This document shows, one piece after another, positions 1 through 570 of a DNA stretch of 9,155 bases. Below the pieces are notes generated by a model. It worked only from the letters and a program-made list of their open reading frames with translations. It had not been told where the DNA came from and did not search any database. Source of the stretch: Escherichia coli (lineage in GTDB: Bacteria > Pseudomonadota > Gammaproteobacteria > Enterobacterales > Enterobacteriaceae); the NCBI RefSeq assembly GCF_003334315.1, contig NZ_QOWR01000091.1; one strand, written 5' to 3'. The position numbers were made by a program, and so were the translations under genes. How positions within the stretch are numbered: position 1 is the first letter of the stretch; every line of letters begins with the position of its first letter.

Positions 1-438
1 AGGCCGCAGTCGGTAACCTCGCGCATACAGCCGGGCAGTGACGTCATCGTCTGCGCGGAAATGGACGAACAGTGGGGCTATGTCGGGGCTAAATCGCGCC
101 AGCGCTGGCTGTTTTACGCGTATGACAGTCTCCGGAAGACGGTTGTTGCGCACGTATTCGGTGAACGCACTATGGCGACGCTGGGGCGTCTTATGAGCCT
201 GCTGTCACCCTTTGACGTGGTGATATGGATGACGGATGGCTGGCCGCTGTATGAATCCCGCCTGAAGGGAAAGCTGCACGTAATCAGCAAGCGATATACG
301 CAGCGAATTGAGCGGCATAACCTGAATCTGAGGCAGCACCTGGCACGGCTGGGACGGAAGTCGCTGTCGTTCTCAAAATCGGTGGAGCTGCATGACAAAG
401 TCATCGGGCATTATCTGAACATAAAACACTATCAATAA
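1..438 (+). CDS. insB: IS1 transposase InsB (InsAB' C-terminal region), 5'-partial at window edge
   Basis: Frame 1 is open from position 1 to the TAA at 436-438; the track ORF 61..438 is the part after the first internal ATG. The protein matches IS1 InsB as I recall it. The antisense ORF 114..404 is spurious. Confidence 0.9.
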
Positions 439-453
439 GTTGGAGTCATTACC
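431..453. repeat. IS1 right terminal inverted repeat (IRR)
   Basis: ATCAATAAGTTGGAGTCATTACC is the reverse complement of the IS1 end GGTAATGACTCCAACTTATTGAT; the element boundary is at 453/454. Confidence 0.85.
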
Positions 454-570
454 GTAGATGCAAATGGCAATGTCACACTAAACTTTTTTGCCAATTATCG
501 AGCGTTAGCCAGCGGTGTTCGGCCAGGTGTGGCGAAAGCGGATGCGATATTTATGATCAATTACAATTAA
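454..570 (+). pseudogene. sfmF: 3' fragment (last 38 codons plus stop) of a type 1-like fimbrial subunit/adhesin gene truncated by the IS1 insertion; likely sfmF by K-12 synteny
   Basis: The frame starting directly at the IS1 boundary is open for 38 codons (VDANGNVTLNFFANYRALASGVRPGVAKADAIFMINYN*, TAA at 568-570). The C-terminus has the alternating-hydrophobic, penultimate-Tyr pattern of chaperone-usher pilin C-terminal strands and resembles the FimH C-terminus (ANYAR...GVTFVYQ). In K-12 sfmF is convergent with fimZ. Gene identity rests on synteny, not on sequence recognition. Confidence 0.45.

Follow-up and report, generated by a model that had tools for sequence, protein, structure and literature searches.

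A probable IS1-associated deletion endpoint within sfmF of the Escherichia coli sfm fimbrial operon

The junction between an IS1 element and the 3' end of the fimbrial subunit gene sfmF in an Escherichia coli contig is probably the endpoint of an IS1-associated deletion of ~3.5 to 3.9 kb; we infer the deletion in the window (the entire 9,155-nucleotide stretch of DNA analyzed here) from its relatives. The event is ordinary IS-driven decay, and RefSeq already has this junction annotated, as a pseudogene next to IS1, in strain EcPF16. As one further example of the erosion of a cryptic fimbrial operon by IS1, it has little importance alone. A mildly notable point is that the same nucleotide apparently served as an IS1 endpoint in two haplotype backgrounds. 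A first-pass annotation of this DNA had recognized IS1, its right end, sfmF, and the number of remaining codons, all of which our results bear out; its reading of the junction as a simple insertion is the part that we revise.

The IS1-sfmF junction and its surroundings

The window corresponds in full to contig QOWR01000091.1 (9155 bp) of assembly GCA_003334315.1, the reverse complement of which is identical to the window. The source genome is a phylogroup-A-like E. coli draft. Repeats form both contig edges: IS1 lies at the left one and an ISAs1-family (H-repeat) transposase gene at the right one, where L001 and L003 likewise have an annotated ISAs1 family transposase. The contig begins within IS1, at nt 316 of the element, which places insA and the left flank of IS1 outside it. 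Since the window is a whole short-read contig starting inside IS1, we addressed the other side of the element through relatives. The window is organized as follows.

1..453, + strand: 3' portion of IS1 (IS1 nt 316-768), with the C-terminal part of insB (ORF listing; PF03400 DDE_Tnp_IS1 match)
431..453, + strand: right terminal inverted repeat (IRR) of IS1, the outer end of the element (exact pattern match in the window and relatives)
454..570, + strand: 3' remnant of sfmF, codons 134-171 plus the TAA stop (translation, identity to CP53, and NF007402)
573..1205, - strand: fimZ, an intact 210-aa LuxR-type response regulator (NF007403 FimZ equivalog, 446 bits, positions 1-210 of 210)
1448..1524, + strand: argU, tRNA-Arg(UCU) (ARAGORN and annotation of relatives)
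after argU, - strand: envY, ybcH, nfrA, and nfrB, in this order (ORF listing)
8872..9155, - strand: C-terminal part of an ISAs1-family transposase gene (ORF listing; PF01609 match)

Positions 431-453 (ATCAATAAGTTGGAGTCATTACC) are an exact 23-bp IS1 right inverted repeat, confirming that the element ends at 453. Base for base, window 1-453 equals nt 316-768 of the complete 768-bp IS1 found in strains CP53, 2018-11-3CC, and ET670; the left end of this element reads GGTGATGCTGCC, with GGTGATGCTG as its first bases on the junction side. Between the contig edge and a TAA at 436-438, the insB frame is open over its C-terminal part and matches PF03400, such that both a terminal inverted repeat and a (partial) DDE_Tnp_IS1 reading frame, the marks of the IS1 family, are present here.

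Immediately to the right, positions 454-570 encode 38 codons and a stop (VDANGNVTLNFFANYRALASGVRPGVAKADAIFMINYN*), including the pilin C-terminal strand that had been noticed at first pass with correct coordinates. This segment and nt 400-516 of the intact sfmF of strain CP53 (516 nt) are identical, and the junction falls after codon 133 of 171. The first 9 bp to the right of the IRR, from sfmF nt 400 on, are GTAGATGCA, within the longer right-flank string GTAGATGCAAATGG. Against NCBIfam NF007402 (fimbria assembly protein, SfmF equivalog), the 38-aa peptide aligns to profile positions 134-171 of 171 with an E value of 1.5e-19, scoring 70 bits, which is under the curated cut-off of 168; the intact 171-aa SfmF carries PF00419 (Fimbrial). 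The tentative assignment of the gene to sfmF was thus right, and with exact identity over hundreds of bases, the identity of both partners at the junction is not due to chance.

The remnant has no ATG, GTG, or TTG before codon 26 and is not a full-length ORF with a signal peptide and a start codon of its own. The TAA of insB (436-438) is in frame with it, five sense codons upstream; this shared frame, a 1-in-3 occurrence, is probably a coincidence. Given this in-frame stop upstream and the absence of start codons before codon 26, the fragment would not be translatable alone, and only stop-codon read-through would allow its translation. As judged from its sequence, we regard it as a dead pseudogene fragment.

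In E. coli K-12, sfmACDHF-fimZ is homologous to the type 1 fim cluster of Salmonella and stays cryptic in the laboratory. The window shares with K-12 the gene order, the SfmF (NF007402) and FimZ (NF007403) equivalogs, and the position of argU after them. Unlike K-12, it retains only the last 38 codons of sfmF and has no DLP12-type prophage at argU: across window 1448-1570, envY directly follows argU. In strain E1648 and in L031 and L035, unlike in the window, an integrase adjoins argU.

The fimZ gene is oriented convergently to sfmF, with 2 nt separating the stop codons of the two genes. Both fimZ and its upstream region are identical in the window and its relatives, and strains of identical sequence have the protein annotated as FimZ (WP_000805422.1). 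A terminator and promoter scan of positions 1-1600 detected no terminator-like site in the sfmF-fimZ interval, nor did the number of sites of any kind exceed shuffle expectation. A specific effect on fimZ is therefore unsupported by the scan, and any influence of the IS1 junction on this gene is speculation.

Other assemblies of the same clone bear on the reality of the junction. The clone can be recognized by an nfrA SNP at window 4159 that is private to it, being absent from every other compared genome. The exact NfrA variant occurs in only six contigs of a large collection, all of 5-10 kb, and two other contigs with this variant, among the matches listed, begin at window 457 and 453. Independent assemblies of the clone also break at the junction, within 4 nt. 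One of them (L007; Logan SRR3824135_341) starts one base before the junction, at window 453, with A, as in intact sfmF, where IS1 has C, and it lacks the ~25-30 bases of IS1 that Logan contigs show at other IS1 junctions. This first base might stem from a mixed population, from low coverage, or from an artefact of the assembly graph.

Could IS1 have been misjoined to the 3' end of an intact sfmF during short-read assembly? The contig ends are repeats. In addition, IS1 nt 444, a position that is T or G among IS1 copies, lies exactly 128 nt downstream of the contig start, which suggests that the assembly graph broke at a bubble with k of ~127; the extension into IS1 may accordingly have been decided by the graph. 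Against such a misjoin stand the identical junction in a complete genome and the breaks within 4 nt of the same position in independent assemblies that carry the private nfrA SNP. We consider an assembly artefact very improbable.

Deletions beside IS1 in EcPF16 and near-identical relatives

IS1 lies near this spot in 16 of 5426 complete E. coli genomes, and the identical junction in one piece is found only in EcPF16 (NZ_CP054224.1). At HR074_RS16020-16025 of this genome, an IS1A element adjoins a pseudogene labeled by RefSeq as "fimbria assembly protein, incomplete, missing N-terminus," with the IRR followed by GTAGATGCA exactly as in the window, to the nucleotide. The IS1 of EcPF16 is complete, and its left flank is sfmD nt 151, the sfmD bases up to this point, where the IS1 left end joins, being ...GGCACATCCG. 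The 9 bp flanking the element are GCACATCCG on the left and GTAGATGCA on the right; hence, no target site is duplicated. A span of 3887 bp from sfmD nt 151 to sfmF nt 400, comprising the rest of sfmD, sfmH, and sfmF nt 1-399, is missing. A retained IS, missing genes, and the lack of a duplication, which together characterize an adjacent deletion, are found in EcPF16 as well as in several near-identical relatives.

The right flank of the window (454-9155) differs from that of 2018-11-3CC at 2 of 8702 positions and from those of ET670 and CP53 at 3-5. In these closest relatives and in many other strains of the same haplotype, an IS1 lies in the usher gene sfmD, at nt 489-497, oriented as in the window, and the IS1 bases of the window do not differ from those of this resident copy. 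CP53 and several others have it as a simple insertion with a 9-bp duplication, CGCTCACGG (nt 489-497); the sfmD bases up to nt 497, at the left junction of the resident element, are ...AGCGCTCACGG. In other strains, the left junction is fixed and the right junctions lie at sfmD 526, sfmD 1228, sfmH 678, and fimZ 511; two further genomes have leftward deletions. A fixed left junction with moving right junctions is the signature of stepwise IS-adjacent deletion, a process that leaves no target duplication.

The literature describes adjacent deletions without duplications that extend step by step from a resident IS (PMC11708052). The series seen here resembles them in that one IS end is fixed, DNA is lost on one side, and no duplication is present where both flanks are visible, with nested endpoints at sfmD 526, sfmD 1228, sfmH 678, sfmF 400, and fimZ 511. 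It is unlike them in that the fixed left junction of the window's own genome is taken from its relatives. Across all fetched loci, IS1 comes with a flanking deletion in 13 distinct configurations of the sfm region, versus 6 distinct simple insertions, although the loci behind this 13:6 count were gathered via queries that may favor some structures. Because deletions beside IS1 are about twice as common as simple insertions in the sfm region, a gene fragment bordered by an IS end at the edge of a contig should not be taken for the product of a simple insertion.

Deletion, simple insertion, and larger rearrangements

Two routes may have led from the resident IS1 to the junction of the window. 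IS1 would first have entered sfmD at nt 489-497 in the orientation seen in the window, by a simple insertion that duplicated 9 bp. The DNA to the right of this resident element (the 3' part of sfmD, sfmH, and sfmF nt 1-399; ~3.5 kb) would then have been lost; were the left junction at sfmD nt 151, as in EcPF16, the loss would amount to 3.9 kb. In the first route, this loss would occur in a single step, through intramolecular transposition of IS1 (adjacent deletion). In the second, another IS1 would insert at sfmF nt 400, and recombination between the two direct IS1 copies would follow. Adjacent deletion promoted by IS1 and deletion by IS-IS recombination are both classical IS1 biology, and the one-step and two-step routes would each fit the sequence. 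In either case, the outcome would be the further decay of an operon that had already been inactivated in its usher gene, with fimZ staying intact. That the subunit is inactivated, as proposed at first pass, is true but moot: since IS1 in sfmD had already inactivated the operon, the functional consequence of losing sfmF is small.

Alternatively, IS1 may have transposed into an intact sfmF at nt 400 with an 8- to 10-bp duplication, in which case the 5' 400 nt of sfmF and sfmH would be located on another contig. The window alone is compatible with this scenario, as the contig starts inside IS1, and sfmF has indeed been hit by simple IS1 insertions with 9-bp duplications elsewhere, at nt 245-253 in E1648 and nt 448-456 in S163-2. 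The contig of the same clone that begins with a base of intact sfmF (L007) also speaks for it. A simple insertion predicts that the 5' part of sfmF ends ...GAGGAAGTAGATGCA and is directly followed by the IS1 left end, GGTGATGCTG, giving as products SfmF1-136+GDAANLLI for a 9-bp duplication, SfmF1-135+AVMLPTY for 8 bp, and SfmF1-136+R for 10 bp. Exact-sequence look-ups of these three truncated products found none on record, with the caveat that a gene caller may choose another start or that the contig may be cut. Analogous IS1-truncated SfmD products are on record (51 aa in 25 blocks and 172 aa in 435 blocks), and gene calling had been performed on the assembly from which the window comes. A search with the SfmH variant of the lineage gave 659 blocks, of which 117 belong to the 2-5 kb class, and was uninformative on a 3.5-kb IS1-bounded contig.

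Further evidence against a simple insertion comes from the other genomes: the sole complete genome with the same junction, EcPF16, is a deletion without duplication, and the resident, co-oriented IS1 of this lineage is prone to rightward deletions. We therefore regard a simple insertion as unlikely. The first-pass claim that IS1 had split sfmF and duplicated GTAGATGCA thus gives way in view of the EcPF16 deletion, the nested deletions in relatives, and the missing products; across IS1 from the remnant, there is probably neither an upstream sfmF fragment nor a copy of the duplication. A scan of JGI metagenome contigs for the exact junction gave 0 matches, and a literature search on sfmF with IS1, or on sfm with insertion sequences, found nothing specific.

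In a third scenario, the rearrangement beside IS1 would be larger, for example, an inversion between IS1 copies or recombination with a distant site, which would leave an unrelated left flank and the 5' sfm genes elsewhere. The lineage of the window is IS1-expanded, with at least 40 IS1-matching places per chromosome versus a median of 10 per E. coli genome, and an IS1-mediated inversion does disrupt the sfm locus in one relative, L022 (OY754409.1). At 8500-12035 of this sequence, two opposed IS1 copies bracket the inversion, with sfmA and folD downstream of the truncated sfmD; the inversion also brings prophage genes beside sfmC. In the window, direct signs of such a rearrangement are absent, and every other relative with an sfm-IS1 junction has a local deletion or insertion. 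A larger rearrangement is consequently a distant prospect compared with the local deletion, which we retain as the probable explanation.

Recurrent IS1 endpoints in sfmF and sfmD

The junctions of EcPF16 and the window share the junction nucleotide, the orientation of IS1, and the downstream genes. Their flanks, in contrast, differ by 31 SNPs in 8.7 kb, the nearest of which lies 110 nt from the junction, and 29 of the 31 are shared with L008. The IS1 copies also differ: position 444 is T in the window and in the resident sfmD copy and G in EcPF16 and L008. The EcPF16 element departs from the resident copy at nt 262 and nt 444, only the latter being within the part of IS1 contained in the window. 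T444 is common to every compared IS1 copy at sfmD nt 489-497, and three copies in GF31 have the same transposase accession; we thus treat T444 as a weak fingerprint at best.

Shared descent of the two junctions would need a recombination tract confined within 434 nt (from IS1 nt 444 to window 564), which makes recurrence the likelier explanation. The events in EcPF16 and the window were probably independent, and their left junctions probably differ. A shared junction nucleotide despite a different haplotype and a different IS1 variant points to hot spots, consistent with the site preferences that IS1 is known to have. A similar pattern is observed at sfmD nt 151, where the IS1 left junction occurs on three different left-flank haplotypes (L008-L014 and L039), one of which has a sister genome with an intact sfmD; this suggests that nt 151 may be a recurrent IS1 target. 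The W-like contig L010 has this junction together with a rare SfmC variant found in 5 contigs, and the two that were listed are not from the window's assembly.

Whether IS1 target hot spots, precise to the nucleotide, exist at sfmF nt 400 and sfmD nt 151, with the IRR-GTAGATGCA junction having arisen independently in two haplotype backgrounds, is in our view an evenly balanced question. If they do, the sfm operon of an IS1-rich commensal lineage would constitute a natural nested-deletion series that records IS1 target choice, and the locus could serve as a natural data set on this choice and on stepwise adjacent deletion. AT-richness was considered as a cause of IS1 clustering and rejected: the junction targets range from 24 to 66% GC within +/-25 nt, with no trend. 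As a minor observation, ~23 of the 31 SNPs that separate the haplotypes of the window and EcPF16 fall in a 1.6-kb stretch within nfrA (window 4159-5712; compared in L001, L008, and L026), a cluster that looks like a recombination patch.
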